From the IMG/VR virus record IMGVR_UViG_3300045988_121070: a DNA stretch of 64,000 nt; one strand, written 5' to 3'. This stretch comes from a virus. This document shows positions 23,197-64,000 of the stretch, piece after piece (the stretch's first letter is position 1; every line of letters starts with the position of its first letter). The translations under genes were made by a program, and so were the position numbers. The notes under the pieces were generated by a model. The model had not been told where the DNA came from. It ran no database searches and saw nothing but the letters and a program-made list of their open reading frames with translations.

Positions 23197-23216
23197 CCCA
23201 GCCGATAACGGCTGGG
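23197..23216 (-). repeat. GC hairpin family copy
   Basis: cccagccgataacggctggg followed by agtggtggcta. Confidence 0.7.
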
Positions 23217-23224
23217 AGTGGTGG

Positions 23225-24571
23225 CTATTGGATGGCATAGTCGGGTAGGCCAGAAGTGTTGGTACGCACCAATGTGCCCTTGAATGGGAATCCGTCGTGA
23301 CTATTGATGTAGAACAGCGCCTGCGTGAGTTTCTGGTTATTGGTGAAGAACTTATACTTTTGTCCGTTCTCCTCCACCTGAATGACTGTTGCCGGTTTGT
23401 TGTATTTCGATTTCACGTCAAACTCAACATCCGTAAACACTATCTCGCGTCCACAGAGCATGGATGCCGATACCTTAGTACCTTCGAGGATGCGTTTACC
23501 CTCAGCGTCCTTTTTCTCAAATGCAGGAACATTCAGATCCTTATATGATTTCATTTTCATTACAGCGCACCAGAGGTTATAGCCATTGCAGTGCATGGCC
23601 CATCCTTTGTAGCTGGCAGCGGCACGATAGCGTTTCAGCGGGTCTTTGATGCGGTGCATCTTCTGCTTAAACTTCGCCTTCATGCGTTTGCGCAGCAGTG
23701 TGTGTTTGAAGAAAAACATATAGCCCACGAAGTCGAGTCGGTGTTTCTCGTCAATGATCTGCATTCCGATATTCTCATGCAGTGGCTGTTCCATGACCTC
23801 ATCGGCATACTTTTTGATGAAGTTGACCGCTTTCCACACCTCTTTCTTATTGGTGCCAACGATCACCATATCATCGCAGTATATCTCCATCCACACGTCG
23901 AAGAGCATCATTACCAGTCGGCACAGCGGGCATGTGTAGTAGTTGGCGATAGGCTGTATTGGGAACAGTCCGATGCCCAGTCCGCTGTCACATGCCGTCA
24001 CTATCTCACGGATGAGATAGCGGATGCCCTTATTGCCGAACTTCTTAGCCAGGTGGTTATACACCTTATCCTGGTCGATATTATGATAGAACTTCACGAA
24101 GTCCAGTTTGACGAAATAGATGCGGTCGTTATGCTTGCGGTGAATGTCGATATACCTTTTGGTACGACGAGCCGCGAAGTGCATCCCCTTACCTTTGATA
24201 GATGCCGAAGAGTCGTAGTAATACGCCCGCATCATGGTAGGCATAATGACCTGCATCAGTGCATGGTTCTCGATATGGTCAGGAAAATATGGCAGTTTAT
24301 GAAGCACACGGTCCTTCCCGCATGGACAGTGTCGTACACACTCATGTCCTGGGGAAGTATGGTATGCTTCATTTTTCAGCAAATCGTGCAAGAGATTGAG
24401 ATTGCCTTGTGGGTCGCGGTCGAACAAGCGTACTCCCTTGTGCGCATCCTTCCCCCGTCGAGCCTCTATGTCGGCTTGACGCAGGTTCAACGGGTCATAG
24501 ACCTGTTGGATGCGCAGTTTTCTATTCTTTCCGCGCAGGCGTTTCTTACGTTGATAAGCTAATTCTGCCAT
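23225..24571 (-). CDS. Reverse transcriptase of the diversity-generating retroelement
   Basis: 448 aa. RT motifs FVKLDFVKFYHNI and IYCDDMVIVG (YxDD box). Lies immediately 3' of a TR that matches two VRs. Confidence 0.85.
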   Translation of the reverse strand: MAELAYQRKKRLRGKNRKLRIQQVYDPLNLRQADIEARRGKDAHKGVRLFDRDPQGNLNLLHDLLKNEAYHTSPGHECVRHCPCGKDRVLHKLPYFPDHIENHALMQVIMPTMMRAYYYDSSASIKGKGMHFAARRTKRYIDIHRKHNDRIYFVKLDFVKFYHNIDQDKVYNHLAKKFGNKGIRYLIREIVTACDSGLGIGLFPIQPIANYYTCPLCRLVMMLFDVWMEIYCDDMVIVGTNKKEVWKAVNFIKKYADEVMEQPLHENIGMQIIDEKHRLDFVGYMFFFKHTLLRKRMKAKFKQKMHRIKDPLKRYRAAASYKGWAMHCNGYNLWCAVMKMKSYKDLNVPAFEKKDAEGKRILEGTKVSASMLCGREIVFTDVEFDVKSKYNKPATVIQVEENGQKYKFFTNNQKLTQALFYINSHDGFPFKGTLVRTNTSGLPDYAIQ

Positions 24572-24944: not shown

Positions 24945-25063
24945 GTAGATGTTCAGGCGAGCGCCGATGTTCGTGTTCGAGTTCGAGAAACCGTTATTCG
25001 AGTTCGCATACGAAAGACCGCATTGCGCACCGTTATTCGCGTTACCCCCGACGTTCAGCAGCT
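24945..25063 (-). repeat. DGR template repeat (TR)
   Basis: 119 nt. About 30 coding-strand adenines. Encodes the Asn-rich GGNANNGAQCGLSYANSNNGFSNSNTNIGARLNIY. Aligns to VR1 and VR2. Confidence 0.9.
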
Positions 25064-25375: not shown

Positions 25376-26629
25376 TTACGCGGAAATCATGGCCACCAGC
25401 TCCGCACCGCTCACGAATATCGGTTCTCCGTAGAAGGCCAGGCGAGCGCCGATGTTCGTGTACGAGGTCGAGAAACCGCTAGCCGAGTACGCAGACGAAA
25501 GACCGCATGGCGCACCGCTATCCGCGTAACCCCCGACGAACAGCAGCTGACCACCCGTAGCGAACCAATACCCATCGCAGTAGTATGTATTAGAACCGGC
25601 ACCAACAGCCTGGCATATCATATCCCAGTATTCGCCCAGTTCCATGCTCTTAGCATAAGTACCACTGCCACTCTGAGAAGAGAGGGCACAGACAAACTCA
25701 CGGCCTTCAGCGGTATTGCTGACAATATTGCCGTCATAGACGATAGCATAGCGCACGTCGTCGCGCATCTCGAAGCGGATGCCAGGACGGAACTCCCACA
25801 GTTTGCCCCATAGGTCCTCGAAGCCGAACAGCTTGACAGGATATTGGTCGCCGATGGTGGCATCCGTATAGAACACCTTACCTGAACCGTCGCCTAATGA
25901 CTTACAGAGGCCCATAGGCACGTTACGAGCAGCCTCCCATGAACTCGTCTGGAATCCAGCACCGATAACCTCCTGAGAGTTCAGCGAGCCATAGCGGGCC
26001 TGGAAGAGCGCATTGATAAGACAATGGAAGCCATAGTTAGCCAATCCCCACTGTGTGCCGAGCTGCTGTGCGCAGTTCCAGAAGGCGCTCATTGTCTTAG
26101 AATGGCCAGGAGCCACGTTCGGGCGTGAGTGTCCGGCACCGCCACCATCTACTGACATCTTGTAAGCACCTACCCAATGCGGTGAGCCAAAGACATGTCC
26201 TCCGTCAATAGGTACGAGACCGCCGAAGTTCAGCGTCTTGTTTTCTCCGAGGAAATGGCAGTCAGGCACATGGATCATCGTCTCACATGCTGCTTCTATA
26301 GCTGCTGTGACAGGTGTTGCATCCGCGAACTTATCCCATGTAGAGCCATTCAGTTTGGCAGCATATACCTTTCCGTCCTTGCGGAAAAACATATAGCCAC
26401 CCATCTGAGCCTGATAGAGTTCTGCAGCACCACGATTATTGACCGTGAATGCAGGGTTAGAGTTTTCTTCCAACGTGTGTTTGGAAGCGAGCGCACCGAC
26501 CACCGTTGACGGAATGGCCGCATTAGCAACCTCAGAAGGCATTGCTTCATAGAAGTTGCTTGCACTGGTGACACACAACACACGAGCGATGCCTTCACCA
26601 GGGTTGAGAGTTGTTTTTGCTTTCTTCAT
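25376..26629 (-). CDS. DGR target protein 1 (C-terminal variable, C-type-lectin/FGE-like domain), probable receptor-binding protein
   Basis: 417 aa. The C-terminus ...GGYADSGAPCGLSSAYSASGFSTSYTNIGARLAFY is encoded by VR1. Sits in the tail-fibre module. Confidence 0.85.
   Translation of the reverse strand: MKKAKTTLNPGEGIARVLCVTSASNFYEAMPSEVANAAIPSTVVGALASKHTLEENSNPAFTVNNRGAAELYQAQMGGYMFFRKDGKVYAAKLNGSTWDKFADATPVTAAIEAACETMIHVPDCHFLGENKTLNFGGLVPIDGGHVFGSPHWVGAYKMSVDGGGAGHSRPNVAPGHSKTMSAFWNCAQQLGTQWGLANYGFHCLINALFQARYGSLNSQEVIGAGFQTSSWEAARNVPMGLCKSLGDGSGKVFYTDATIGDQYPVKLFGFEDLWGKLWEFRPGIRFEMRDDVRYAIVYDGNIVSNTAEGREFVCALSSQSGSGTYAKSMELGEYWDMICQAVGAGSNTYYCDGYWFATGGQLLFVGGYADSGAPCGLSSAYSASGFSTSYTNIGARLAFYGEPIFVSGAELVAMISA
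25430..25548 (-). repeat. DGR variable repeat 1 (VR1)
   Basis: Hand alignment to the TR gives 119 nt with 16 differences. All 16 are at plus-strand T of the TR, which is coding-strand A. Confidence 0.9.
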
Positions 26630-26670: not shown

Positions 26671-26690
26671 CCCAGCCGAGAACGGCTGGG
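26671..26690 (-). repeat. GC hairpin family copy
   Basis: cccagccgagaacggctggg followed by agtggtggtta. Confidence 0.7.
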
Positions 26691-39727: not shown

Positions 39728-39747
39728 CCCAGCCGAGAACGGCTGGG
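39728..39747 (-). repeat. GC hairpin family copy
   Basis: cccagccgagaacggctggg followed by aggggttgcta. Confidence 0.7.
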
Positions 39748-41400: not shown

Positions 41401-41890
41401 TTATCGATTTAGAATTAGATATTTACCTTGTATCGAGGATTGGCACAGGCGAGCGTCTGCTTCATAGCCGAAGGCGACGAGGACAGAACCGAAGAATGGG
41501 GAGCCGGTGGTGCCGTCTGGCTGAATGAACCTGATGCGGTGGCGCATGAAGATCAGCGACTTTGCCTTGGGGAAGATGACTTCCTGAAAGAGTAGGTTAT
41601 CAACCTGGTTCTTCAGTAAGGCGATACCATTGTTATGCTCTGCCAACTTCTCAACGAATGGACGCAGTAGGGAGCGGCTATATGGCGGGTTCATAAAGAC
41701 CAGTGCCGAGGAAGGCCATTCCTGAGCAAGCCCGTTTTGCTCCTTATTATACGATAGTGGCGCTATCTGATAGGGGGGGGGTAATTGGCGAACATGGGTC
41801 CAAATCAAATGGCCCCAACTCATCGATAACCCACTTTGGTGTGTACCACTCATCGGAACTTACTACGGGATTGCGCTGTGTCTTGTTCAT
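41401..41890 (-). CDS. Phage Dam-like N6-adenine DNA methyltransferase, split by a C9 tract
   Basis: From ATG 41890: MNKTQRNPVVSSDEWYTPKWVIDELGPFDLDPCSPITPP, then the tract at 41773-41781. The 41401..41853 frame continues PPYQIAPL...LVFMNPPYS. One C fewer joins the two frames. Confidence 0.7.
41773..41781 (-). repeat. Homopolymer: C9 on the coding strand (G9 on plus)
   Basis: Coding-strand context aattaCCCCCCCCCtatc. The frame is broken as sequenced. Confidence 0.9.
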
Positions 41891-43748: not shown

Positions 43749-43994
43749 TTAATTCTTTAATATGAGCCGGAGAGCGAAAAGGGCGTTACCAGCATCGCCT
43801 ACACGGACTACTTCGTTATATACTCGTTCAAGACTTCGAGGATTGACCTCTTTAAACTTGTTCATTTCAGGGACGGTCAGTTTGTGACCTGCAATCGTAG
43901 CGATTTTGAAGATCATGGCGGTGCGGCTGAGACCGTTGCCTGCAAAGGGTGATTTTGCCCCCCCCTGATGCTTGGATGTTTGAAATATATTCAT
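43749..43994 (-). CDS. Small hypothetical protein containing an in-frame G8 tract
   Basis: 81 aa. KHQGGAKSPF is encoded across the tract at 43958-43965. Confidence 0.45.
   Translation of the reverse strand: MNIFQTSKHQGGAKSPFAGNGLSRTAMIFKIATIAGHKLTVPEMNKFKEVNPRSLERVYNEVVRVGDAGNALFALRLILKN
43958..43965 (-). repeat. Homopolymer: G8 on the coding strand
   Basis: Plus strand gattttgCCCCCCCCtgatg. In frame as sequenced. Confidence 0.9.
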
Positions 43995-44413: not shown

Positions 44414-45181
44414 TTAAAATAATGTTTGTTGTGATAATTCTATTTTGATATTCTTCTCAGCCATTGCGAAATACTCAGGATGAATTTCAAAGCCAATGTA
44501 ATGGCTTTTCTCCTTGATAGCTGCTATGGCTGTTGTTCCGCTACCTATGAAAGGGTCGAGAATTACCCCCCCCCGTGGCACGAAAAAATGTATGAGCGTC
44601 TGAGGTAAAAGAAGCGGGAATGCTGCCCGATGCTTACCTTTGTGGTTCTTTCCAATTCTCAACACATTGGATAGTTTACCACGTTCAGCGTTCAATAGAG
44701 GAAACTGGCGGCCTTTACAGTCGTGCTTATCGAAAGCGATGATAAATTCATACTCACAGTTGAGCACTCCTGAGTGCATGGCCGGTTCAGACGATTTCTT
44801 ATCCCAGATAAGGATATCACGGATGCGGTCAGCATAGTGGCCAAAGATTTTCATCAGAGCCACCTTATTACCTGTTATCATCATTATGTTATAGAAGACA
44901 GGTCCATTGCTGACACGTAACATTTCGTCGATACACTGACATTGCCAGTTGAAATAGTCATCCATTGACATTGCATCATTCACACGGTTGTCGTAACGAT
45001 TAGCAGGGAGGCCGGTATAACCAAACGTCTCTCCTTTCGTCCATTTGGTATATTTACCAGAATGGATGCGTAGGCCGAAGTTATAAGGCGGTGAAGTGAT
45101 AACAGCATTTACGCTGTTATCCTCCATCTGCCTCATTCCTTCGAGACAATCCATGTTGTATATGGTGTCAATGTTCATCAT
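44414..45181 (-). CDS. N4-cytosine/N6-adenine DNA methyltransferase (beta class)
   Basis: From ATG 45181: MMNIDTIYNMDCLEGM...VITSPPYNF (motif IV) ... ILDPFIGSGTTAIAA (motif I). The track N-terminal extension to 45358 is an out-of-frame read through VR2. Confidence 0.8.
   Translation of the reverse strand: MMNIDTIYNMDCLEGMRQMEDNSVNAVITSPPYNFGLRIHSGKYTKWTKGETFGYTGLPANRYDNRVNDAMSMDDYFNWQCQCIDEMLRVSNGPVFYNIMMITGNKVALMKIFGHYADRIRDILIWDKKSSEPAMHSGVLNCEYEFIIAFDKHDCKGRQFPLLNAERGKLSNVLRIGKNHKGKHRAAFPLLLPQTLIHFFVPRGGVILDPFIGSGTTAIAAIKEKSHYIGFEIHPEYFAMAEKNIKIELSQQTLF
44566..44574 (-). repeat. Homopolymer: G9 on the coding strand
   Basis: Encodes PRGGV just before motif I. In frame as sequenced. Plus-strand context aattaCCCCCCCCCgtgg. 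Confidence 0.9.
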
Positions 45182-45182
45182 A

Positions 45183-46010
45183 TTACTTCTGCTCTTCAGG
45201 AATTGGTTTGAAGACCAGGGCCGACCATAGCGCAGCGAATTGGCGACCAGCGTATTTCGCAAGTTCGCTCGATTTGAAGGCCAGGCGAGCGCCGAAGCAC
45301 GCGTTCGAGCGCGAGAAACCGAGACTCGAGTCCGCAGCCGAAAGACCGCAGCGCGCACCGCTAGCCGCGAGACCCCCGACGATCAGCAGCTGTGCCTTAT
45401 CATCCTCACTCATTTCGTCTATCTCCTTCTGGGTATAGAGGTAGAAGTAAGGATAGTAGCGATATTCATCCTCAGTGAATTGTGGCACCCATCCTTCATT
45501 GAGGGCATAGGTGATGATGCGGAGCTGGATGTAAGCAAGCAGGTCAGGTGTACGTGGCGAATTAAACCAGAGGTCTATCATCAGTTCGTTAGCCAGTTTG
45601 TCGCCAGCCTGAGCACGGCGATTGAGGTCATTGCAAGCATCCTCAAAGGTCTTGATGCGTTCTGTGACGGGGCGGTTGTCTGGAGTTTCTGTTTCATCCG
45701 CAGGTATGATGCAAGACCAATCCTCTGCCAAAATATCCTCCCATGAGGGAATGTAGTAGGTGGCAGAAGCCGGTGTTTTACCGTCGTCTGTGAAGGTAAT
45801 CATAATCACCTGGTCGTGGTAGGATATTTCGCCACTTCCAACGGTGCTAATCTTTGGTTTGATAGATGCTGGCAGGGATGTCATCTTTGGCACCACATCC
45901 TTTGCTATACATTGGGGGATCTGCATGACGATTTCCTGATTGTCATGCCACGTAGAACGGGAGGCATGGCCACCCTTTTTCAGACATTCAATAACTGCTG
46001 GAAAATTCAT
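45183..46010 (-). CDS. DGR target protein 2: DUF2829-like N-terminal domain fused to a VR-bearing C-type-lectin/FGE-like domain
   Basis: From ATG 46010: MNFPAVIECLKKGGHASRSTWHDNQ...ATYYIPSWEDILAEDWSCI. The C-terminal GGLAASGARCGLSAADSSLGFSRSNACFGARLAFK is encoded by VR2. Confidence 0.8.
   Translation of the reverse strand: MNFPAVIECLKKGGHASRSTWHDNQEIVMQIPQCIAKDVVPKMTSLPASIKPKISTVGSGEISYHDQVIMITFTDDGKTPASATYYIPSWEDILAEDWSCIIPADETETPDNRPVTERIKTFEDACNDLNRRAQAGDKLANELMIDLWFNSPRTPDLLAYIQLRIITYALNEGWVPQFTEDEYRYYPYFYLYTQKEIDEMSEDDKAQLLIVGGLAASGARCGLSAADSSLGFSRSNACFGARLAFKSSELAKYAGRQFAALWSALVFKPIPEEQK
45276..45391 (-). repeat. DGR variable repeat 2 (VR2), about 20 kb from the TR
   Basis: Hand alignment to TR 24948-25063 gives 116 nt with 23 differences. 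22 are at coding-strand A of the TR. One is a non-adenine change. Confidence 0.85.
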
Positions 46011-46029
46011 ATTACTTTTGGTTATTAGA

Positions 46030-46049
46030 CCCCGCCGTTCTCGGCGGGG
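46030..46049 (-). repeat. GC hairpin family copy with inverted loop
   Basis: ccccgccgttctcggcgggg followed by catgggtta. Confidence 0.6.
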
Positions 46050-46055
46050 CATGGG

Positions 46056-46934: not shown

Positions 46935-47394
46935 TTAACTTTCGGCGGTTTGGCGAGCCTTTTCGCAGACGAAAATCAGTGCTTGTTTGAGGACACCTGT
47001 TGCTGTTTCCCACTGACGTTGCAGTGCGTTGATAGCCACTTTCTTCTCGTGTTTGAGGTCATAGATTTTCTTCTGCATATTGATGTCATTAAGTTGCATC
47101 TGATGATCGAGATTGTGCATTTCCTGACGCAGTGCTAATGCTTTTTCGCGCTCATCGGGTGTGCCACCAGAGGGCAGTTGTGACCGTTTGAGGTCGATAA
47201 GGCAGATGATGCGGTTGCGTTCTACCTGCTGTTCGGTACGGACGTTGAACACGTCATTGTCGCACTTGGTGCGGATCTGCATGATAGCTTCATCACGGTA
47301 GGTATTGACTTTACCAAACCATGCTCGTACTTCTTCCTCGGAGAGCTGTTTCAGGTCTTCCAGGGGGGGGGTAATTTACGAAATTTTGTTCCAT
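46935..47394 (-). CDS. Coiled-coil hypothetical protein, split by a C9 tract near its 5' end
   Basis: From ATG 47394: MEQNFVNYPP, then the tract at 47363-47371. One C fewer continues LEDLKQLSEEEVRAWFGKVNTYRDEAIMQIRTK... into track ORF 46935..47282. Confidence 0.45.
47363..47371 (-). repeat. Homopolymer: C9 on the coding strand (G9 on plus)
   Basis: Coding-strand context aaattaCCCCCCCCCtgg. Confidence 0.9.
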
Positions 47395-50445: not shown

Positions 50446-50465
50446 CCCAGCCGAGAACGGCTGGG
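50446..50465. repeat. GC hairpin family copy
   Basis: cccagccgagaacggctggg followed by agtggctg, in the non-coding hub. Confidence 0.65.
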
Positions 50466-52551: not shown

Positions 52552-52571
52552 CCCAGCCGATAACGGCTGGG
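52552..52571 (-). repeat. GC hairpin family copy
   Basis: cccagccgataacggctggg followed by catgtggcta, 3' of the tape measure gene. Confidence 0.7.
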
Positions 52572-59034: not shown

Positions 59035-59060
59035 AAAAAACCGCTGGCAGAACCAGCGGG
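59035..59060 (-). terminator. Intrinsic terminator closing the cassette array
   Basis: On the minus strand, cccgctggttctgccagcgg is followed by tttttt, directly after the C12 stop. Confidence 0.7.
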
Positions 59061-59064
59061 AACA

Positions 59065-59307
59065 CTAAAAGAAGTATTCGATAAGGAGGACGGTTTTGGG
59101 GTAGTGAGCGAGAGAGAGGATGTCTTCAGGCAGCTGCATGGCATCGTAGCGGGTGTTTAGGGTGCAAGCGACACCTCCTGATGCTACGTTGACGGGGACT
59201 ATTTGCCCCCCCCCCCTAAACAGCCTTGGAGGTGCGGAGGTAGTTTGGGAAAGCGGGAGAGCTGTCATGCTATGACAGCATACGGAACGACTTTTCTTAT
59301 AGGTCAT
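59065..59307 (-). CDS. Cassette C12: TRD-like mini-ORF, G11 tract, in frame
   Basis: MTYKK, then an in-frame PAL-A variant, then ...PPRLFRGGGQIVPVNVASGGVACTLNTRYDAMQ...KTVLLIEYFF stop. Tract at 59206-59216. Confidence 0.5.
   Translation of the reverse strand: MTYKKSRSVCCHSMTALPLSQTTSAPPRLFRGGGQIVPVNVASGGVACTLNTRYDAMQLPEDILSLAHYPKTVLLIEYFF
59261..59288 (-). repeat. PAL-A variant inside cassette C12
   Basis: gctgtcatgctatgacagcatacggaac. Confidence 0.55.
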
Positions 59308-59550
59308 ATTCAATAAATACACATTGGGATGTTTCGCCGGCCATTAGAGCAGAAGCGACACGGCCATCCTCCTTGACACGAGCACGGCGGAGTTTGGAGG
59401 TAGGGTAAGCCATATCGAAGACCCCATTGGGGAGGCATTCGATATATCCGCTTTCGGTGGCCTGGCGGACTTGGAGCACGATTTGCCCCCCCTATTGGCG
59501 ATGGTAAGGAACGGGCGACGCAGTTCATAGTGATGGACGTTAGAACTCAT
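59297..59550 (-). CDS. Cassette C11: TRD-like mini-ORF, G7 tract, out of frame
   Basis: From ATG 59550: MSSNVHHYELRRPFLTIANRGG, then the tract at 59486-59492. One extra G gives RGGQIVLQVRQATESGYIE...RVASALMAGETSQCVFIEYDL stop. Confidence 0.5.
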
Positions 59551-59715
59551 ATTCAATCAAGACATAAGGAGTGGTGTTATACATGCCTGTATCGGAATCT
59601 TTGCCAATACCCCCCCTGAAAACGAGGTAATGGTGTTGCAGATCTGCTTCAAGTTGTAACGGAGAACCAGACCTTTCGTATCACGAATCCAGCCGATGAA
59701 GTTATAGGTTGTCAT
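59540..59715 (-). CDS. Cassette C10: TRD-like mini-ORF, G7 tract, out of frame
   Basis: From ATG 59715: MTTYNFIGWIRDTKGLVLRYNLKQICNTITSFSGG, then the tract at 59610-59616. One extra G gives GIGKDSDTGMYNTTPYVLIEYEF stop. Confidence 0.5.
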
Positions 59716-59848
59716 ATTCTATCAGGAGGCAATGAGGACATTTATAATCAGTAGCACGAAGTGCCGGAGAGACCAAAAGCCATTTGCCCCCCCCTGACTT
59801 CCATTCAAAAGCGTGGGATAAAGGATGAACGCCTACCTTATAAATCAT
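59702..59848 (-). CDS. Cassette C9: TRD-like mini-ORF, G8 tract, in frame
   Basis: MIYKVGVHPLSHAFEWKSGGGKWLLVSPALRATDYKCPHCLLIEYDNL stop. SPALRATDYK resembles the SPTLTARDYK motif of C5-MTase TRDs. Tract at 59787-59794. Confidence 0.55.
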   Translation of the reverse strand: MIYKVGVHPLSHAFEWKSGGGKWLLVSPALRATDYKCPHCLLIEYDNL

Positions 59849-59991
59849 ATTCTATCAGGATATACCCCCCCCCCATTTGCGGCCAACACCGTTTGGACGA
59901 TGCCGGCAGTACCTTGAACATTACCATCAAAACCATTACGGAAGGTATCGTAATATAGGTTCCCAATACGAAGGATGTTGCTATAAATCAT
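59838..59991 (-). CDS. Cassette C8: TRD-like mini-ORF, G10 tract, out of frame
   Basis: From ATG 59991: MIYSNILRIGNLYYDTFRNGFDGNVQGTAGIVQTVLAANGGG, then the tract at 59865-59874. One G fewer gives YILIEYDL stop. Confidence 0.5.
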
Positions 59992-60282
59992 ATTCGATAA
60001 TTACATTATTGACGTGAGCGGTGATGATTGTAGCAGAGGGGTTACGAAAATAATTACAGACGAGTTCGGGCACCCCCCCATCTTAGCATCCTGACGGTAG
60101 AAACGGAGGTCGCCATTCGGGAGCCAGTGAGCAGCGATGATATCACGGCGAGAAAGACCAAGCCGAGAACGGCTGGGAGTGGTGGCGGAGGAACCAGCGG
60201 GGGAACCGCTGGACGCTGTGGAATTGGGGGCTGCGATAGTATCGCAGCATACGGGACAATCTACAATTCTCTTTCTATCCAT
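59981..60282 (-). CDS. Cassette C7: TRD-like mini-ORF with an in-frame PAL-A plus two hairpins, G7 tract, out of frame
   Basis: MDRKRIVD, then a 35-codon insert, then SRRDIIAAHWLPNGDLRFYRQDAKMGG, then the tract at 60073-60079. One extra G gives VPELVCNYFRNPSATIITAHVNNVIIEYDL stop. Confidence 0.5.
60158..60212 (-). repeat. Two GC hairpin family copies inside cassette C7
   Basis: ccaagccgagaacggctgg at 60158-60176 and ccagcgggggaaccgctgg at 60194-60212. Confidence 0.65.
60230..60257 (-). repeat. PAL-A copy inside cassette C7
   Basis: gctgcgatagtatcgcagcatacgggac. Confidence 0.7.
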
Positions 60283-60520
60283 ACGAGGTTATCTTTTTGC
60301 ACGGAGGTGATGGTGTTTGTGACTTGGGCGGAACCGAGTTCGATAACTTGGTGAAAGTTGCGGTCAGCATGAGCACCACGGAATGAGAGGCAGTCGAGGT
60401 CACGATTAACCTGCGAACATATACGGACAGAAGCGGCACGGCTGTCTGGGTCTCGGTCGTAGAGGTAGGTCATGGTTTGCCCCCCCTACCTCGGCTTGCT
60501 GAGATACGGACTTTGGCCAT
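60261..60520 (-). CDS. Cassette C6: TRD-like mini-ORF, G7 tract, out of frame
   Basis: From ATG 60520: MAKVRISASRGRGG, then the tract at 60480-60486. One extra G gives QTMTYLYDRDPDSRAASVRI...AQVTNTITSVQKDNLVWIEREL stop. The distal part also has its own ATG at 60473. Confidence 0.5.
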
Positions 60521-60542
60521 GTCTGCGGACGGTTCAGTATCT

Positions 60543-60731
60543 TTAATCAAGAGCATATTCTACTAATAAGAGGTTATCTTTCTGAATGCCAGTGATAGTG
60601 TTAGAGCAGCCATCGGTTGCAGGGAGCAAAAAACGGTCGGAGAAACGGCAATGCCCCCCCCTATCTCCGTAGATACGGCGCACGGCTTTTGCGTGAGCGG
60701 TGCGGACAGCACGGAGGATAGAAGCCCCACC
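60543..60731 (-). CDS. Cassette C5: TRD-like segment with no start codon of its own, G8 tract, in frame
   Basis: GGASILRAVRTAHAKAVRRIYGDRGGHCRFSDRFLLPATDGCSNTITGIQKDNLLLVEYALD stop. Its frame stays open back through both hairpins into the core gene (track ORF 60543..60866). Tract at 60654-60661. Confidence 0.5.
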   Translation of the reverse strand, partial: GGASILRAVRTAHAKAVRRIYGDRGGHCRFSDRFLLPATDGCSNTITGIQKDNLLLVEYALD

Positions 60732-60779
60732 GAAAACGGCGGGGAGTGACGGCTTAGACCCGCTGGGAGAACCAGCGGG
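60725..60779 (-). repeat. Two GC hairpin family copies between the MTase core stop and cassette C5
   Basis: ccccaccgaaaacggcgggg at 60725-60744 and cccgctgggagaaccagcggg at 60759-60779. Confidence 0.7.
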
Positions 60780-60783
60780 CACA

Positions 60784-62151
60784 CTAACCTTTGGCACGGA
60801 TGGCTGCGATTTCTTCATCAGAGAGTTTGTGATCGGTGACGGTGTAGTAAATCTTAGCGGCAGCATCCGTCTCGTTTTTGGAGAGGAACTTTATCACGCT
60901 GTCCGGCTTCAGGAAGAACTTTTCACTAACCTCCTCTTCGAGAATGTCAGCGATGCAGGTGGTGAGTTCAAAGGGACGCGGGAACTCATACTGCGTATCG
61001 CCGAGGATATCCTGACGGATGGAGATCATATAGACCCGTTCGCGGTTCTGAGCTACGCCATAGTGTTTGCTGTTCAGAATGCCAAACTTCGTTTTCTTCT
61101 CACGTTTCTCTTTGCCCCAGGGGTAAGGGAATGACGGTGCGAGGAAGTTGACATAGCCATGTTTCTCCAGTAGGGCGCACCATTCTTTGAAGTCGGGCAT
61201 GTTGACGCTGTTAATGAGGGCAGAGACATTTTCCTGAAGGAGGATTTTCGGGCGCATCTGTTCAACAGCCTTTTCGGTGTACCAAAGGACTGCAGAGCGG
61301 GTGTCAGAGCCTTTTTTGATGCCCGCACGTTTTCCCGCCTGACTGATGGACTGACAGGGCGTGGAGTAAGTCAAGAAATCGATGTCAGCATCCGAGAGGT
61401 CGCTCCAGTCACATTTGGTCATGTCGCCCCTATTGAGGGAGGCATACTGCGGGAAGAGCAAGTTATGAGCAACCACGGCAGGCTGTTCATTGATTGGCCT
61501 TTTGCTTTCGGGGTCGAACTCAGCCCATGCCACGAGTTCATAGGCGAAATCAGGATAACGCTCACGGAGCATGTCAAAGGCTATGCACTGGGAGTCATAG
61601 CCAGAGCAAAGCGTAACCACCTTCAGAGGCTGTTCGCAGAAATTGCGAGACATCTGGAAAGTGGGTAGCGCAAACATATCCTGCACTTCACCAGGTATGC
61701 GGCGGTCGGTGGGGAATAAAAAAGCCTCGTAGATATACATGAGGACATCGCAGACGATTGAATTGCCAGCGAGCTTGTAGTGGTTGGAGTTGGAGATTAT
61801 CTGCACGGGGCCAAAACGCTCTTCGGTTTTGGCGGCCTTGATTTTTTCGTAAGCAAGGGTGTAGTTCTGACGGAGGAGTTCTATTTCCTCGGCATCATCA
61901 TCCTCTTCATCCCCAGCGACGGAATCACTGGGCACAGTATCTGGAGCATCTGCAGGTGCTTCGTTTTCTTCATCTGAGGGAGGTGTTTCGAGGCTTTCCA
62001 AAGAATCGCGGAAGGCTTCTTCTACTTCTTTCATTGTTGCCGAGGGTTCCAAACCGAACACGCTTAACTCATTATCGACATCAACGAAAGCGGTGTATGA
62101 CTTTTGTTCAGTAGCCATCAACTGAGAAATCTGGCGTTCAGGAACGCCCAT
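60784..62151 (-). CDS. DNA (cytosine-5) methyltransferase catalytic core, circularly permuted (motif X precedes motif I)
   Basis: YKLAGNSIVCDVL (X), VTLCSGYDSQ (I), TYSTPCQSIS (IV), ILLQENVSAL (VI), GVAQNRERVY (VIII). As sequenced the ORF begins at MGVPE, in the middle of motif IX. Confidence 0.85.
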   Translation of the reverse strand: MGVPERQISQLMATEQKSYTAFVDVDNELSVFGLEPSATMKEVEEAFRDSLESLETPPSDEENEAPADAPDTVPSDSVAGDEEDDDAEEIELLRQNYTLAYEKIKAAKTEERFGPVQIISNSNHYKLAGNSIVCDVLMYIYEAFLFPTDRRIPGEVQDMFALPTFQMSRNFCEQPLKVVTLCSGYDSQCIAFDMLRERYPDFAYELVAWAEFDPESKRPINEQPAVVAHNLLFPQYASLNRGDMTKCDWSDLSDADIDFLTYSTPCQSISQAGKRAGIKKGSDTRSAVLWYTEKAVEQMRPKILLQENVSALINSVNMPDFKEWCALLEKHGYVNFLAPSFPYPWGKEKREKKTKFGILNSKHYGVAQNRERVYMISIRQDILGDTQYEFPRPFELTTCIADILEEEVSEKFFLKPDSVIKFLSKNETDAAAKIYYTVTDHKLSDEEIAAIRAKG

Positions 62152-62155
62152 TAGC

Positions 62156-62465
62156 CTATAGCATTCGGGGGGGGGTAAGTTTTCGGATGTCGAAGTACCT
62201 CACGGGGTGCTTCGGATCCTTTTTGCCCTGGAGGTCAGGGTGGTTGTCGGGATAAATTTTTGCAATCATACGCTCTTTATGTTTAATATCAAATCTTTCT
62301 TCACAAACAAAATAATGATTACGGGCAGAGATACCCGCCAGAATCGTTACAGCGATGCCATGATGCGACCGCTGATTATAGGTGTCGAGCATTTCGCCGT
62401 GAAAGTTCGGTCGCCATTGCCCCCCCCCTAATCATGGCATTCAGCCGAGAATTAAAATGGTTCAT
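62156..62465 (-). CDS. Cassette C4: TRD-like segment plus the first half of motif IX, cut by two 9-nt tracts
   Basis: From ATG 62465: MNHFNSRLNAMIRGG, then G9 at 62420-62428. One G fewer gives QWRPNFHGEMLDTYNQRSHHGIAVTILAG...YFDIRKLTPP, then coding-strand C9 at 62167-62175. One C fewer gives ECYRLMGVPERQ, continuous with the core. Confidence 0.6.
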
Positions 62466-62650
62466 AAGTCATATTCTATTAAAACGACAGTCATTGGGAA
62501 GTGTGCAAGCGTCAGGATATTCGTAGGTCCGACAGCATCGTAACGAGTGGTAAGGGTAGCAGCGCAGCCGTCGGCTGTGACATTGACAGGAGCGATTTGC
62601 CCCCCCCTGGTAGTGCGGAATGCACCGATGTTTGTTATCTTACAGATCAT
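62462..62650 (-). CDS. Cassette C3: TRD-like mini-ORF, G8 tract, in frame
   Basis: MICKITNIGAFRTTRGGQIAPVNVTADGCAATLTTRYDAVGPTNILTLAHFPMTVVLIEYDL stop. Tract at 62600-62607. Confidence 0.55.
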   Translation of the reverse strand: MICKITNIGAFRTTRGGQIAPVNVTADGCAATLTTRYDAVGPTNILTLAHFPMTVVLIEYDL

Positions 62651-62849
62651 ATTCAATCAATACGCCAGTGGCACCACGAGTGGTTTTTAGAAGAAAATTA
62701 GCGACACTACTTTTCTGATACTGAGCTTTGATGGTTCGACATACCCCCCCCTGATAAGCGTTAATAAGCCCCAGCCGAGAACGGCTGGGAGTGGTGTTTT
62801 TTTGAGCTGCGATGGTATCGCAGCATACGGGACACTTTTCATAGGTCAT
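62640..62849 (-). CDS. Cassette C2: TRD-like mini-ORF with an in-frame PAL-A plus hairpin, G8 tract, in frame
   Basis: MTYEK, then a 23-codon insert (CPVCCDTIAAQKNTTPSRSRLGL), then INAYQGGVCRTIKAQYQKSSVANFLLKTTRGATGVLIEYDL stop. Tract at 62744-62751. Confidence 0.55.
   Translation of the reverse strand: MTYEKCPVCCDTIAAQKNTTPSRSRLGLINAYQGGVCRTIKAQYQKSSVANFLLKTTRGATGVLIEYDL
62770..62789 (-). repeat. GC hairpin family copy inside cassette C2
   Basis: cccagccgagaacggctggg followed by agtggtg. Confidence 0.7.
62806..62833 (-). repeat. PAL-A copy inside cassette C2
   Basis: gctgcgatggtatcgcagcatacgggac. Confidence 0.7.
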
Positions 62850-62987
62850 ACTCGATGAGAATTTTGGGTTTGTCTGTATCGTGGCCATTGCCCCCCCTGC
62901 GAGACAGAGGGCGATACCTTTTGGGGACACCACTATGCCGTTTTGGGAAGGGCTATAACGACCGAGGATGATAGGACGTGTGACCAT
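62839..62987 (-). CDS. Cassette C1: TRD-like mini-ORF, G7 tract, out of frame
   Basis: From ATG 62987: MVTRPIILGRYSPSQNGIVVSPKGIALCLAGG, then the tract at 62891-62897. One extra G gives GNGHDTDKPKILIEYDL stop. As sequenced it reads through into the C2 frame (track ORF 62640..62987). Confidence 0.5.
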
Positions 62988-62988
62988 A

Positions 62989-63177
62989 TTACAAGAGTAG
63001 GATGATGACGATAATCAACAGCACGGCAAAGGTGCGAGAACGACGGGGGCGGATGTCGCCACGGATGTAGGACTTTGTGGAGATCCTGGTGGGTGACGGG
63101 AGTGGACGCTTGATGTCGTAGGGATCGATGCGTTCGAGTCGTCGGGGGTCGTGGTTCTTTTTCTTCTGATGCTTCAT
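62989..63177 (-). CDS. Small basic protein with a C-terminal hydrophobic anchor
   Basis: 62 aa ending FAVLLIIVIILLL. Start and stop are coupled to the neighbouring genes. Confidence 0.4.
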   Translation of the reverse strand: MKHQKKKNHDPRRLERIDPYDIKRPLPSPTRISTKSYIRGDIRPRRSRTFAVLLIIVIILLL

Positions 63178-63590
63178 TCGTGATTGGACTGGGTGGCGGA
63201 CCAGCGGAGGTTAGAGAAATGATTATTGGTGCGGTTGCCATCGATGTGGATGACGTGGGGAAGGTTGTCGGGGTTAGGGACAAAGGCTTCTGCCACGAGG
63301 CGATGCACCTTAAAGTTCTTACCAGCGAGACGGACACGGCGATAGCCTTTGCCGTTGAAAGATGCTATCTCCTTGCAGAGAGCGCCAGGACTCGATGGAG
63401 AACCATCGAGCACGTTGGCTGTAGGAGCTGATAGGACACGGCCATCTTTCGCAATGAAATAGGATGTGCGGCCATGCTGGAAGAAGCAGGCCACCTCTAT
63501 ACGGTGAGTAACACCAGGACAGTTGGTGACACAGCCCTCATCAGCAACAAGTGACTTTGCGATAAAATCACAGTTATACATCTTATCCAT
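63174..63590 (-). CDS. HNH homing-type endonuclease
   Basis: From ATG 63590: MDKMYNCDF...HRLVAEAFVPNP...VIHIDGNRTNNHFSNLRW (HNH_3 pattern). Contains hairpin copy 63391-63410 (LDGSPSS). Confidence 0.75.
   Translation of the reverse strand: MDKMYNCDFIAKSLVADEGCVTNCPGVTHRIEVACFFQHGRTSYFIAKDGRVLSAPTANVLDGSPSSPGALCKEIASFNGKGYRRVRLAGKNFKVHRLVAEAFVPNPDNLPHVIHIDGNRTNNHFSNLRWSATQSNHE
63391..63410 (-). repeat. GC hairpin family copy inside the HNH gene (different stem)
   Basis: ctcgatggagaaccatcgag followed by cacgttgg. Confidence 0.6.
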
Positions 63591-64000
63591 TACTTTGTGC
63601 CGGTATGTCCGTAACCGCCATCGCCACGTTCGGTATCGTCGAGGACTGTCACGGGGTTCCACTCTGCCTGTTCGTAGGATGCGATAACCAGTTGGGCAAT
63701 GCGTTCGCCGTCGGCAATCTCGAAGGGGATGTTGCTTAGATTGATGAGCAGCACACCGATTTCACCACGATAGTCGGCATCGATCGTGCCTGGTGCGTTG
63801 AGCACGGTGATACCATGTTTGAGAGCGAGGCCGGAGCGTGGGCGCACCTGAGCCTCGTAGCCTGCAGGGAGTGCGATATACAGGCCGGTGGGGACTAACA
63901 CACGCTCCATGGGTTGCAGGACGATAGGCTCTGTGATGTTCGCACGAAGATCCATGCCGGCAGACTGAGCTGTGGCATATTCGGGAAGTGGGTGGTGGGA
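63590..64000 (-). CDS. dut: dUTPase, 5' end beyond the window
   Basis: ...[17 protein letters not shown]...[10 protein letters not shown]...[11 protein letters not shown]...RIAQLVI...[10 protein letters not shown] are classic dUTPase motifs. The frame is open to the window edge. Confidence 0.85.

Follow-up and report, generated by a model that had tools for sequence, protein, structure and literature searches.

The minus strand between positions 62987 and 59035 of the stretch that we analysed (64,000 nucleotides of a rumen phage, IMG/VR virus record IMGVR_UViG_3300045988_121070, hereafter the window) carries one cytosine-5 methyltransferase (C5-MTase) core flanked by twelve very small genes, which we call cassettes C1 to C12. 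Four of them lie upstream of the core and eight downstream, and each is interrupted by a run of G. The element is in a tailed phage. A previous sequence-only reading had described this arrangement, and its observation is real: all 13 homopolymers, 12 G-runs of 7-11 nt and one C9, are present, and every in-frame (ON) or out-of-frame (OFF) state that it listed was reproduced by frame-corrected translation. Only four other G/C runs of 7 or more exist in the remaining 60 kb, and a G7 window is matched 39 times in the whole window against 5.0 expected from shuffles. The junction ATHGAATATGA, in which the start codon of a cassette is embedded, occurs 7 times, always on the minus strand inside the region, against 0.12 expected by chance.

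The catalytic core occupies 60784..62269 (minus strand). Its conserved start MIAKIYPD at 62269 is followed by motif IX, an acidic insert of about 110 aa, motif X, motifs I, IV, VI and VIII, and a 78-aa tail, with no target-recognition domain (TRD) between VIII and IX. Pfam PF00145 is matched with E=8e-36, the top Foldseek hits are 4dkj and HhaI, and more than 1000 relatives were found. The circularly permuted order, as claimed earlier, is confirmed by alignment to M.HhaI and M.MpeI: query residues 93-110 align to HhaI 271-288, 224-244 to 294-314, 342-416 to 55-124, and 461-511 to 150-199. As sequenced, however, the core is OFF. A C tract at 62167-62175 inside motif IX (RKLTPP|EC) is C9, which splits the motif and leaves an ORF of 455 aa (62151-60784) starting at MGVPERQ; C8 would be ON, and the tract acts as a switch for the core itself. 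Its length is C9, C9 and C8 in the window and in two related loci 98% identical to it, L001 and L002 (related loci are numbered L001 onwards; tract lengths given below as three figures follow the same order). The tract is absent in L005 (TPRE) and is at a different spot (GVPPPQ) in L016 and L017.

Upstream of the core, all on the minus strand, C1 (62839..62987; family A of our cassette families, ...QNGIVVSPKGIALCLAGGGNGHDTDKPKILIEYDL) has its G tract at 62891-62897, which is G7 and thus OFF, while G8 would be ON. Its orthologues occur in all related loci, and tract lengths are 7/6/7. C2 (62640..62849, ...GGVCRTIKAQYQKSSVANFLLKTTRGATGVLIEYDL) is ON with G8 at 62744-62751; it matches the module at residues 177-220 of the methylase P0285 by BLASTP with E=2e-11 (the P-numbered proteins are introduced below), and its TRD part (62769-62657) is replaced by a different family in L001 and L002. 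C3 (62462..62650; family B, RGGQIAPVNVTADGCAATLTTRYDAVGPTNILTLAHFPMTVVLIEYDL) is ON with G8 at 62600-62607. C4 (62270..62465, MNHFNSRLNAMIRGGQW...LDTYNQ..GIAVTILAGISARNHYFVCEE plus a linker) is fused in frame to the core N-terminus when ON, but its tract at 62420-62428 is G9 and OFF, while G8 would be ON. This module is fused in many relatives (for example P0145), free-standing in L040, and absent in L016 and L017. It matches P0280 117-166 with E=2e-8.

Downstream of the core, again on the minus strand, C5 (60543..60818; family F, ...RIYGDRGGHCRFSDRFLLPATDGCSNTITGIQKDNLLLVEYALD) is ON with G8 at 60654-60661 and matches P0317 98-146 (E=2e-10). C6 (60261..60556; family G, ...RISASRGRGGQ...VTNTITSVQKDNLVWIEREL) is OFF with G7 at 60480-60486 (G8 would be ON); it matches P0317 with E=7e-5, and a homologous module is present in the beta subunit of Dulem virus 40. 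C7 (59981..60282; family J, ...HWLPNGDLRFYRQDAKMGGVPELVCNYFRNPSATIITAHVNNVIIEYDL) is OFF with G7 at 60073-60079 (G8 would be ON), has tract lengths of 7/7/8, and matches P0313 223-264 (E=1.5e-6). C8 (59838..59991; family C, ...NLYYDTFRNGFDGNVQGTAGIVQTVLAANGGGYILIEYDL) is OFF with G10 at 59865-59874, G9 would be ON, and tract lengths are 10/9/8. C9 (59702..59848; family H, ...VGVHPLSHAFEWKSGGGKWLLVSPALRATDYKCPHCLLIEYDNL) is ON with G8 at 59787-59794 and matches P0302 172-206 (E=1.5e-10). C10 (59540..59715; family D, ...CNTITSFSGGGIGKDSDTGMYNTTPYVLIEYEF) is OFF with G7 at 59610-59616 (G8 would be ON), with tract lengths of 7/8/8 and a match to P0280 316-345 (E=3e-5); its family lies upstream of the core in L003 and L005. 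C11 (59297..59550; family E, ...RGGQIVLQVRQATESGYIEC...RRARVKEDGRVASALMAGETSQCVFIEYDL) is OFF with G7 at 59486-59492 (G8 would be ON), and its orthologues occur in L001-L005, L011 and L015-L017, and frame-shifted in L008. C12 (59065..59307; family B', ...RGGGQIVPVNVASGGVACTLNTRYDAMQLPEDILSLAHYPKTVLLIEYFF) is ON with G11 at 59206-59216, has tract lengths of 11/8/10, and matches P0313 with E=3e-7. It is the last cassette and uses TAC for Tyr, so no overlapping ATG follows.

Several details of the earlier description need correction. It stated that C5 has no ATG of its own, but there is one in frame at 60818 (MKKS...), overlapping the 3' end of the core, and orthologues start MKKSP or MRKSP. It held that lengths 8 and 11 keep the frame, but the ON length is not always 8 or 11, since for C8 it is G9. 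C1 in its G7 state is not simply off, because it reads through into C2 as a 115-aa fusion ORF. Nor does every cassette end in (L/V)(I/V)EY(D/E/A), as was claimed: C6 ends WIEREL and C12 ends LIEYFF. Finally, the long cassettes C2, C5, C7 and C12 are long because their leaders contain hairpin elements. Hairpin H-a (GTCCCGTATGCTGCGATaccATCGCAGC) lies at 62804..62833 in the leader of C2, with further copies at 60228-60257 and 59259-59288, the last of which has compensatory stem changes (GCTGTCAT/ATGACAGC). Hairpin H-b (CCCAGCCGttctCGGCTGGG) lies at 62766..62796, also in the leader of C2, with further copies at 60154-60184 and 60721-60751, the C5 leader containing both H-b and H-c; H-b belongs to a repeat present 16 times in the window, outside the array directly after stop codons. 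Hairpin H-c (CCCGCTGGttctcCCAGCGG) lies at 60759..60787, directly after the core stop codon, and again at 59035..59068 after the C12 stop codon, where it is followed by a T-run and forms an intrinsic-terminator-like end of the array (all minus strand).

The relationship of the cassettes to TRDs rests on an exhaustive profile search. The family-B profile, searched against 1.84e9 proteins, hits five PF00145 proteins with several tandem modules before motif IX, namely P0280 (9e-7), P0285 (1.6e-6), P0302 (6.6e-5), P0313 and P0317. Nine of the 12 window cassettes match successive modules of these proteins at E between 1e-11 and 7e-5. The search thereby links the cassettes to tandem modules lying between motifs VIII and IX of canonical multi-TRD phage methylases; P0285 has the canonical order VI-VIII-modules-IX-X, and the GenBank phage PP511379.1 has the same modules in a beta subunit. 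However, the link is not equally good for every cassette. C1 and C11 have no significant match to the five tandem proteins (for C11, IKIRQATVQGYIEC in the Dulem virus 40 beta chain is similar by eye), and for C8 the match is only weak (E=0.008). Direct tests were uninformative: the cassettes have no Pfam hit even at E<=10, profiles of families A and B find no solved methylase, and AlphaFold gave a pLDDT of 23-48 for the only cis module, which says nothing on docking. Families B and C4 are not detectably homologous to each other.

The free-standing form of the cassettes is conserved in many metagenomes, as mini-proteins of about 62 aa. For family B there are 85 clusters of free-standing homologues and, in the profile search, 93 representatives, nearly all of 43-111 aa. 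Many relatives have a core with no TRD in cis. They start MIAKIYPD..., 28 aa before motif IX, L016 and L017 have no C4-type module, and the L037 core has 16 aa before IX. In L040 part of the cassette array lies about 4 kb from the core, and the C4-type module is its own ORF there. Cassette order and side of the core differ between relatives, and, as described for C2, one cassette is swapped between 98%-identical genomes. The coding character of the cassettes is supported on both sides of the tract, since in the corrected frame pN/pS is 0.31/0.73 upstream and 0.20/0.76 downstream, which indicates purifying selection on both halves.

The tracts are hypermutable, as judged from consensus assemblies rather than from reads. 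Near-identical phages from independent assemblies differ almost only in tract length: L011=L014 versus L012=L013 show 7 differences over 5.85 kb, all of them tract lengths, and L008 versus L009 show 1 difference over 7.2 kb, again a tract. Between the window, L001 and L002, 11 of 13 tracts differ. Assembly error, a concern raised in the earlier reading, is in our opinion unlikely to explain this pattern, because the same architecture and the same tract positions recur in JGI, ENA, NCBI and Logan assemblies. The tracts are also selected. They sit at the same Gly codons in relatives about 68% identical in the core protein, and they run against codon bias, since in 20 other ORFs GGG is 43 of 835 Gly codons (5%) and 0 of 60 Gly-Gly pairs are GGG-GGG. 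On the other hand, the ON fraction (38 of 101) is close to the 1/3 expected with no selection on state.

We therefore favour, with moderate confidence, the view that the locus is a disassembled multispecific C5-MTase, in which free-standing TRD mini-proteins program a TRD-less permuted core in trans. One polypeptide carries the whole catalytic machinery and has at most one TRD (C4), fused at its N-terminus through two tracts. The TRDs are encoded as about a dozen separate mini-ORFs of 45-65 codons, each with a start codon embedded in the EY(D/E) codons of the preceding cassette, its own stop, and a G (rarely C) homopolymer laid over a Gly-Gly(-Gly) motif. In this view slipped-strand mispairing during phage DNA replication changes tract length and moves each cassette independently in or out of frame, the C tract in motif IX and the G tract of C4 doing the same for the core. 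In any one genome about a third of the cassettes are in frame. Each in-frame cassette would be translated as a free TRD mini-protein, dock non-covalently between the C-terminal tail after motif VIII and the N-terminal segment before motif IX of the core, and direct 5mC to its own target sequence. The progeny population would then carry a stochastic, heritable but reversible mixture of methylation patterns, which would probably be bet-hedging against the variable Type II and Type IV restriction repertoires of host strains.

The earlier hypothesis, that of a library of exchangeable specificity domains for one core, switched individually, is thus supported in each element that sequence analysis can test. 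What our analysis demonstrates is the anatomy, the TRD homology, the hypermutability and conservation of the tracts, the purifying selection and the existence of TRD-less cores; translation of the mini-ORFs, their docking in trans, the methylation itself, the distinct specificities and the benefit against restriction are inferred, on no direct evidence for either translation or binding. As precedent, fragment complementation of C5-MTases and viable permutation in the variable region are documented (PMC5944983). However, in engineered M.MpeI and M.SssI, separating the piece holding the TRD plus motif IX from a permuted remainder gave no activity (PMC5944983), and trans TRDs are therefore not trivially functional. 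We found no prior description of a system of this kind.

The same strategy is seen elsewhere in the window, where two other methylase genes carry G/C tracts that vary in length among relatives. A Dam-like MTase is split by a C9 tract, which is C8 in relatives, and an N4/N6 MTase carries a G tract that is G7, G8 or G9 in relatives.

The window is a tailed-phage genome fragment with nearly all of its genes on the minus strand, among them those for a 1938-aa tape-measure protein and a head maturation protease. Between 62987 and 59035 on the minus strand there are 12 G-runs of 7-11 nt and one C9, while the other 60 kb hold only four more G/C runs of 7 or more. G7 windows number 39, against 5.0 expected from shuffles, and the junction ATHGAATATGA occurs seven times, only in this region, against 0.12 expected. 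The sequence-only reading had listed an ON or OFF state for every tract, and three-frame translation followed by systematic frame correction reproduced each of these states; its observation therefore holds. Cassettes C2, C3, C5, C9 and C12 are in frame as sequenced, whereas C1, C4, C6, C7, C8, C10 and C11 are out of frame by one base, together with the C tract at the joint between C4 and the core. All 13 tracts lie inside the reading frame, and in each of them a change of one base restores or breaks the conserved frame. Immediately upstream of the array lies an HNH_3 homing-endonuclease-like ORF, and next to it a 121-aa ORF which, judged by eye alone, resembles a dUTPase (63174-63662 and 63590-63955, minus strand); in relatives a NUMOD4/HNH ORF occupies a similar position.

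The core ORF (62151-60784) matches the Pfam family of C5-cytosine DNA methyltransferases, PF00145, with 124.5 bits against a cut-off of 22 (E=8e-36), and the frame-corrected C4-core sequence scores 138 bits. The catalytic and AdoMet motifs are present, namely I (LCSGYDS), IV (TPCQ), VI (QENV), VIII (QNRERV), IX (RKLTPPEC) and X (AGNS), although motif IX is intact only with C8 rather than with the sequenced C9. We searched the frame-corrected C4-core sequence against PDB sequences. In the alignment to M.HhaI, query residues 93-110 (IRKLTPPECYRLMGVPER) correspond to HhaI 271-288 (motif IX), residues 224-244 to 294-314 (motif X), residues 342-416 to 55-124 (motifs IV-VI) and residues 461-511 to 150-199 (motif VIII). 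The order is therefore IX, X, I-VIII, which is the 'Type H' permutation known from M.BssHII and about 26 other enzymes, all broken in the variable region (PMC5944983). With C8 the ORF would start at the conserved MIAKIYPD (62269), and with G8 in C4 as well it would start at the C4 ATG (62465). An AlphaFold2 model of a natural C4-core fusion from a relative has a confident catalytic domain, and the best Foldseek matches of the model are M.MpeI and M.HhaI. The mean pLDDT is, however, only 65, and the module and the C-terminal tail are below 50, thus the model confirms the catalytic fold and says nothing about docking. Motifs IX and X are separated by an acidic and partly helical insert of about 110 residues (…SDEENEAPADAPDTVPSDSVAGDEEDDDAEE…; approximately 61480-61830, residues ~20-130 of the 455-aa ORF), where canonical C5-MTases have only a few residues. 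This insert varies in length and sequence among relatives.

The architecture is conserved and widespread. The core has more than 1000 relatives in metagenomes, typically on contigs of about 100 kb from rumen and gut samples. Seventeen related loci (L001-L005, L008-L018 and L037) carry the permuted core flanked by small cassettes that hold G or C runs. The 14 of these examined in the window's lineage (all but L013, L014 and L037) have between 7 and 12 G runs in the array. L037 has fewer, with four G runs after the core, and in the lower-GC lineage of loci L039 and L040 the runs are only 6-7 nt. The cassettes fall into families A, B, B', C, D, E, F, G, H, I, J, the C2 type and others, and the 12 modules of the window represent 11-12 sequence families. 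The families recur across relatives about 68% identical in the core protein, with the homopolymer on the same Gly-Gly(-Gly) codons, but their order and the side of the core on which they sit differ between genomes. In L001 and L002, which are 98% identical to the window elsewhere, the TRD part of C2 (window 62657-62769; L001 3420-3570) is replaced by an unrelated family (RGGGNYCPCLGTTDFGLPKIVVEYDL), exactly between hairpin H-b of the leader and the junction, which we regard as a recent cassette swap.

The tracts are hypermutable. Contigs that encode one identical core protein, P0177, fall into two states (L011=L014 and L012=L013), and over 5.85 kb these differ at seven positions, all of which are G-tract lengths: 9/8, 9/6, 7/8, 8/7, 8/7, 8/7 and 8/9. 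L008 and L009 differ over 7.2 kb only by one tract, 9/8. Among the window, L001 and L002, 11 of 13 tracts differ, and apart from two replaced patches and short indels in the terminator region after C12, every indel is in a tract. The tracts are also maintained by selection. In 20 other long ORFs of the window GGG supplies only 43 of 835 Gly codons, and none of 60 Gly-Gly pairs is GGG-GGG, hence the all-G coding at every cassette is selected as such. In the corrected frame, synonymous sites between orthologous cassettes are saturated (pS about 0.73-0.76), and yet the tract keeps its position; non-synonymous divergence is 0.31 upstream and 0.20 downstream of it. Both halves are coding in the ON frame, so these are not pseudogenes. 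Across 13 loci, 38 of 101 assignable tracts are ON, which is close to the one-third expected if lengths drift freely.

Direct attempts to relate the cassettes to known TRDs were not successful. Pfam returned nothing for raw or frame-corrected cassettes, even at E<=10; profiles of cassette families B and A gave only chance hits among PDB sequences; and an hhalign comparison of family B with the C4 family was not significant. BLASTP of C1 against an approximate M.HhaI sequence, checked at residues Q237 and T250, gave only a 17-aa match at pairwise E=0.012, so that the analogy with the HhaI loop remains a resemblance only. An exhaustive HMM search with the family-B profile over 1.84 billion proteins was more informative. 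It returned 93 hits, nearly all of them mini-proteins of 43-111 aa, but five are long PF00145 proteins (P0280, P0285, P0302, P0313 and P0317) that carry between three and about eight different modules in tandem immediately before motifs IX-X. P0285 shows the canonical order VI, VIII, modules, IX, X. BLASTP places nine of the twelve window cassettes (C2, C3, C4, C5, C6, C7, C9, C10 and C12) on successive modules of these proteins with E between 1e-11 and 7e-5, while C8 matches only weakly and C1 and C11 do not match. The module ends in the tandem proteins (GVIEVG, GILEI, VVEI, LLQEP) correspond to the LIEY(D/E) ends of the cassettes. A sixth long hit, P0270 (395 aa, E=4e-9), is a repetitive protein with four copies of ...ITHFPMTVLLYDCKWFESWLH... 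and no Pfam domain; it is probably a spurious or wrong-frame translation of a repeat and we did not use it as evidence.

The un-fragmented version of the system is found in a GenBank phage, Dulem virus 40 (PP511379.1, our locus L020, 4980-6920), which has an alpha ORF (I-VIII) and a beta ORF with tandem modules plus IX-X, and no homopolymers in or next to these two ORFs. Locus L019 (4803-7620), from another gut phage, is likewise a canonical-order two-ORF multi-TRD C5-methylase, but with a G7 and two C9 tracts and one free mini-TRD ORF at module joints, and it looks like an evolutionary intermediate towards the fully fragmented form in the window. In these two-ORF methylases the beta chain has up to about eight tandem TRDs.

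The ATG of each cassette sits in the TAT-G of the E-Y-(D/E) codons of the preceding cassette and so overlaps its last codons, and every module has its own stop codon. The last cassette, C12, has no successor and uses TAC for Tyr, yet it still keeps the Tyr. This points to termination-reinitiation coupling, and to a role of the LIEY end at the protein level. Since all three stop codons (TAA, TAG and TGA) end cassettes, we rejected stop-codon reassignment. An apparent fusion of a family-D cassette to the core (protein P0158) proved to be a decayed cassette with a lost G run.

Cassettes C2, C5, C7 and C12 have long leaders because hairpin elements lie there, and these leaders remain in frame. One element (H-b, CCCAGCCGttctCGGCTGGG) is a repeat found 16 times in the window, for example at 62770-62789, 60725-60744, 52552-52571, 50446-50465, 39728-39747, 26671-26690, 23197-23216 and 2297-2316, and has a GC-rich 8-bp stem and a 4-nt loop (CCCAGCCGTTCTCGGCTGGG and variants). 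Outside the array the copies sit directly after stop codons and usually lack a T-run. The element could be a terminator, an RNA-stability element or a processing element. A second hairpin (H-a, GCTGCGATnnnATCGCAGC; 62804-62833, 60228-60257 and 59259-59288) reads as CPVCCDTIAA in frame. One copy keeps the stem through compensatory changes and its peptide becomes CCHSMTA, while in a relative (protein P0121) the element is translated inside the C4-core linker (…EECPVCCDSIAAPNKKNMIAKIYPD); it may act either as nucleic acid or as peptide. The array ends in a hairpin plus T-run. An Rfam scan of the region gave nothing.

In our opinion, action in trans is the best reading of these data. The cores of many relatives start MIAKIYPDGHPDLQGKKDP.HPVRYFDIRKLTP, just 28 residues before motif IX, end about 78 residues after motif VIII, and have no TRD in cis. 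Although the permutation site lies in the variable region, a cis module (C4) exists in the window only after two tract corrections; L016 and L017 have no C4-type module anywhere in the array, and in the more distant L037 it is also absent, the core having 16 residues before motif IX and being followed by free cassettes. In L040 one cassette sits immediately upstream of the core, but the main array lies about 4 kb away behind unrelated genes; its cassettes are intact ORFs with G runs of at most 7 nt, and the C4-type module is itself a free-standing 55-aa ORF. A conserved TRD-less core needs a source of specificity, and the only candidates are the mini-proteins. In tandem multi-TRD enzymes a module far from VIII and IX in the chain must already reach the active site with the other modules looped out, therefore the covalent links are probably not structurally essential, although this last point is inference. 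C5-MTases are known to reassemble from fragments and to tolerate permutation in the variable region; however, one engineered split that isolated the piece containing TRD plus motif IX was inactive (PMC5944983), so that trans TRDs are plausible but not demonstrated. The interpretation offered from sequence alone, a library of exchangeable and possibly free-standing specificity domains for one catalytic core, individually switched by slipped-strand mispairing, is thus supported in those elements that sequence analysis can reach. The permuted core, the homology of most cassettes to TRD modules, the variability of the tracts and the selection upon them follow directly from our analysis, whereas transfer of methyl groups to C5 of cytosine, translation of the mini-ORFs, docking of the mini-proteins on the core, a distinct target for each of them, and reversible heterogeneity within a clonal population are inferred.

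The wider context is consistent with a role in restriction evasion. The four other long G/C tracts of the window (41773-41781, 44566-44574, 43958-43965 and 47363-47371) lie in genes. One of these genes is a Dam-like N6-MTase split by a C9 tract, which is C8 in the 98%-identical relatives L022 and L023, and one is a PF01555 N4/N6-MTase whose G9 is in frame and is G7, G8 or G9 in relatives L031-L035. The other two are small unknown genes, and the one at 47363 is out of frame near its N-terminus. In relatives, PAPS-reductase-family genes just upstream of the array also carry G7-G8 tracts (L008 330-845, L011 851-1036, L012 856-1040), one of which is polymorphic (G8 against G7 between L011 and L012). 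The lineage therefore places contingency tracts preferentially in DNA-modification genes. A plausible reason to switch methylases off as well as on is the existence of methylation-dependent (Type IV) restriction, and competition of many TRDs for one core is another possible reason, but both are inference.

Other explanations deserve consideration, although we believe each of them to be unlikely. The mini-ORFs might be mainly a DNA archive from which recombination or gene conversion at the conserved junctions and G tracts moves one TRD at a time into the expressed position in front of the core (the C4 slot), as in pilE/pilS or vlsE, the free peptides themselves having no function. Indeed, conserved junction repeats of 11-29 nt flank every cassette, one cassette was exchanged precisely between hairpin and junction in 98%-identical genomes, cassette order is shuffled among relatives, and C4 is fused to the core in many genomes. 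However, every cassette keeps its own ATG and stop and is under purifying selection in frame on both sides of its tract, and an archive would not need individual frame switches. Furthermore, many relatives have no fused module and hence no expression site, the C4/core joint shares no junction sequence with the cassettes, and in L040 the C4-type module is free-standing. It is no more likely, in our view, that the mini-proteins are real but are exapted TRD fragments with another role, for instance as competitive DNA binders that mask restriction sites, as inhibitors of host methylases or restriction enzymes, or as regulators of the core. The families are conserved, short and free-standing, modelling and Pfam scans gave no structural or statistical evidence for docking, and the engineered TRD-containing fragment did not complement in M.MpeI or M.SssI. 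On the other hand, the cassettes always accompany a permuted core that lacks exactly the segment they resemble, the same families occur as cis TRDs in canonical enzymes, and a TRD-less core in a family of this size would lack a source of specificity.

Somewhat more doubtful is slippage at the level of RNA or the ribosome, by which some in-frame product would arise from every cassette whatever the DNA length, the length differences being near-neutral noise and the tracts setting expression level rather than acting as ON/OFF switches. The ON fraction agrees with the neutral expectation, and lengths of 7-11 are in the range where polymerase slippage occurs. But this does not explain why tracts are kept at every cassette against strong codon bias, nor why the same device sits in three unrelated methylase genes, and it is compatible with the best explanation as a modifier rather than excluding it. 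Least likely, in our opinion, is that the length differences are homopolymer sequencing or assembly errors, or that the cassettes are decaying fragments of a former multi-TRD gene. Differences confined to homopolymers are, admittedly, also what sequencing error would give, and one cassette in L015 is clearly decayed, with the G run lost and an internal stop. Nevertheless, the same architecture appears in JGI, ENA, NCBI and Logan assemblies, two pairs of assemblies reproduce identical tract sets and one tract differs by 3 nt between the sets, and stop codons end every cassette regardless of tract length. Purifying selection on both sides of the tract, and conservation of tracts across relatives about 68% identical in the core protein and against codon bias, likewise argue against artefact and decay.

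Each ingredient of the system is known. In the multispecific C5-methyltransferases of Bacillus phages (M.SPRI, M.phi3TI, M.rho11sI, M.H2I; also M.(phi)BssHII), one catalytic scaffold also serves several short, independent, exchangeable TRDs of different sequence, as modules of about 40-60 aa, presumably for self-protection against several restriction systems, but there all TRDs are contiguous in one polypeptide between VIII and IX and constitutively present. Here each predicted TRD is its own ORF with its own homopolymer switch, modules lie on both sides of the core, and the scaffold is permuted and lacks a TRD; the homology that we detected is to tandem modules of uncharacterised canonical multi-TRD enzymes. 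Work on the Bacillus phage enzymes is cited in PMC8936443 and PMC12707154. Naturally circularly permuted C5-MTases (M.BssHII, M.Alw26I, M2.Eco31IC, M.Esp3I, M2.BsaI; PMC5944983) share with our core the position of motif X ahead of motif I and a break in the variable region between VIII and the TRD. They keep the TRD in cis at the new N-terminus and are single-specificity components of R-M systems, whereas here it is detachable (C4, through two tracts) or absent, and there is the additional insert between IX and X. Phase-variable methyltransferases of bacteria (Type III mod and Type I hsdS/hsdM phasevarions; PMC7383803, PMC12707154) are likewise switched by slipped-strand mispairing at simple-sequence tracts in the coding region. 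They are, however, N6-adenine enzymes of cellular genomes with one tract per gene and a regulatory or defence role, while here a phage C5 enzyme has about 13 independent tracts in 4 kb, each gating a different putative specificity module.

Campylobacter phages also use hypermutable polyG tracts to create phenotypic heterogeneity in their progeny, but the targets there are tail-fibre or receptor-binding genes rather than DNA-modification genes, and here the tracts are arrayed over a library of modules. Split C5-MTases (M.AquI alpha/beta) and fragments of M.BspRI, M.SssI and M.MpeI demonstrate that active enzyme can assemble from separate polypeptides broken in the variable region (PMC5944983), and L019 and Dulem virus 40 have this alpha/beta layout. 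In the window, on the contrary, IX-X and I-VIII are on one chain and only the TRD would be separate, a three-way topology with no demonstrated precedent, the nearest engineered split being the inactive one. In Type I R-M systems specificity is also supplied by a separate, exchangeable polypeptide (HsdS) with several alternative alleles per locus, including phase-variable and shuffling hsdS loci, but this is an unrelated enzyme class (N6-adenine) with unrelated folds, and switching there is mostly by recombination between hsdS copies.

We found no description of a system that combines these ingredients, either in the literature or among GenBank phages, and in particular no precedent for free-standing, individually switched TRD mini-genes. 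Megablast of the 4 kb against GenBank phages gave no match. In tblastn of the core against the same collection, none of the 50,697 records covered 80% or more of the core at the protein level, and only the I-VIII half was matched, at about 41% identity or less. A scan of 185,579 bacterial and archaeal genomes for the core found none and thus gave no host or prophage clue; the host is probably a rumen Bacteroidota or Firmicutes strain. With more than 1000 members in rumen and gut metagenomes the core family is therefore not a curiosity; it is common but not annotated as such in that phage collection, and gene callers break these loci into 'hypothetical' 40-60 aa ORFs and truncated methylases.

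The boldest form of the hypothesis, which we consider slightly more likely than not, is a C5 DNA methyltransferase whose recognition domain has become a separate, diffusible mini-protein of about 50 aa. A phage would encode about a dozen alternative versions, each with its own polyG switch, plus a master switch in the catalytic core, and every burst would release progeny with different, heritable and reversible combinations of 5mC specificities. Progeny DNA is methylated by the enzyme set of the parental cell, so that a lag of one generation between tract states and methylation is expected. This would be the first trans-acting TRD for a C5-MTase and the densest known array of contingency loci in a virus. 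If the mini-ORFs are indeed trans-acting TRDs, specificity of a C5-methyltransferase can be supplied by a peptide of about 50 residues, a natural plug-in system of direct use for engineering targeted cytosine methylation. It would also answer a long-standing question about multispecific enzymes, namely how a TRD far from motifs VIII and IX in the chain reaches the active site. Further, it would show that phages, not only bacteria, use contingency loci to randomise their epigenome, as a counter-strategy to the combined pressure of methylation-sensitive and methylation-dependent restriction.

The window also contains a complete diversity-generating retroelement (DGR) on the minus strand, with a reverse transcriptase ORF (23225-24571; phrog_1423, Pfam RVT_1), a template repeat (24945-25063) and two variable repeats, VR1 (25430-25548) and VR2 (45273-45391). 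All 16 mismatches between the template repeat and VR1 fall at template adenines, as do 22 of 25 mismatches to VR2, which lies 20 kb away at the 3' end of ORF 45183-46052. Because this DGR has its own two variable repeats elsewhere, we rejected the idea that it targets the cassettes. The phage thus combines DGR mutagenesis with polyG phase variation.
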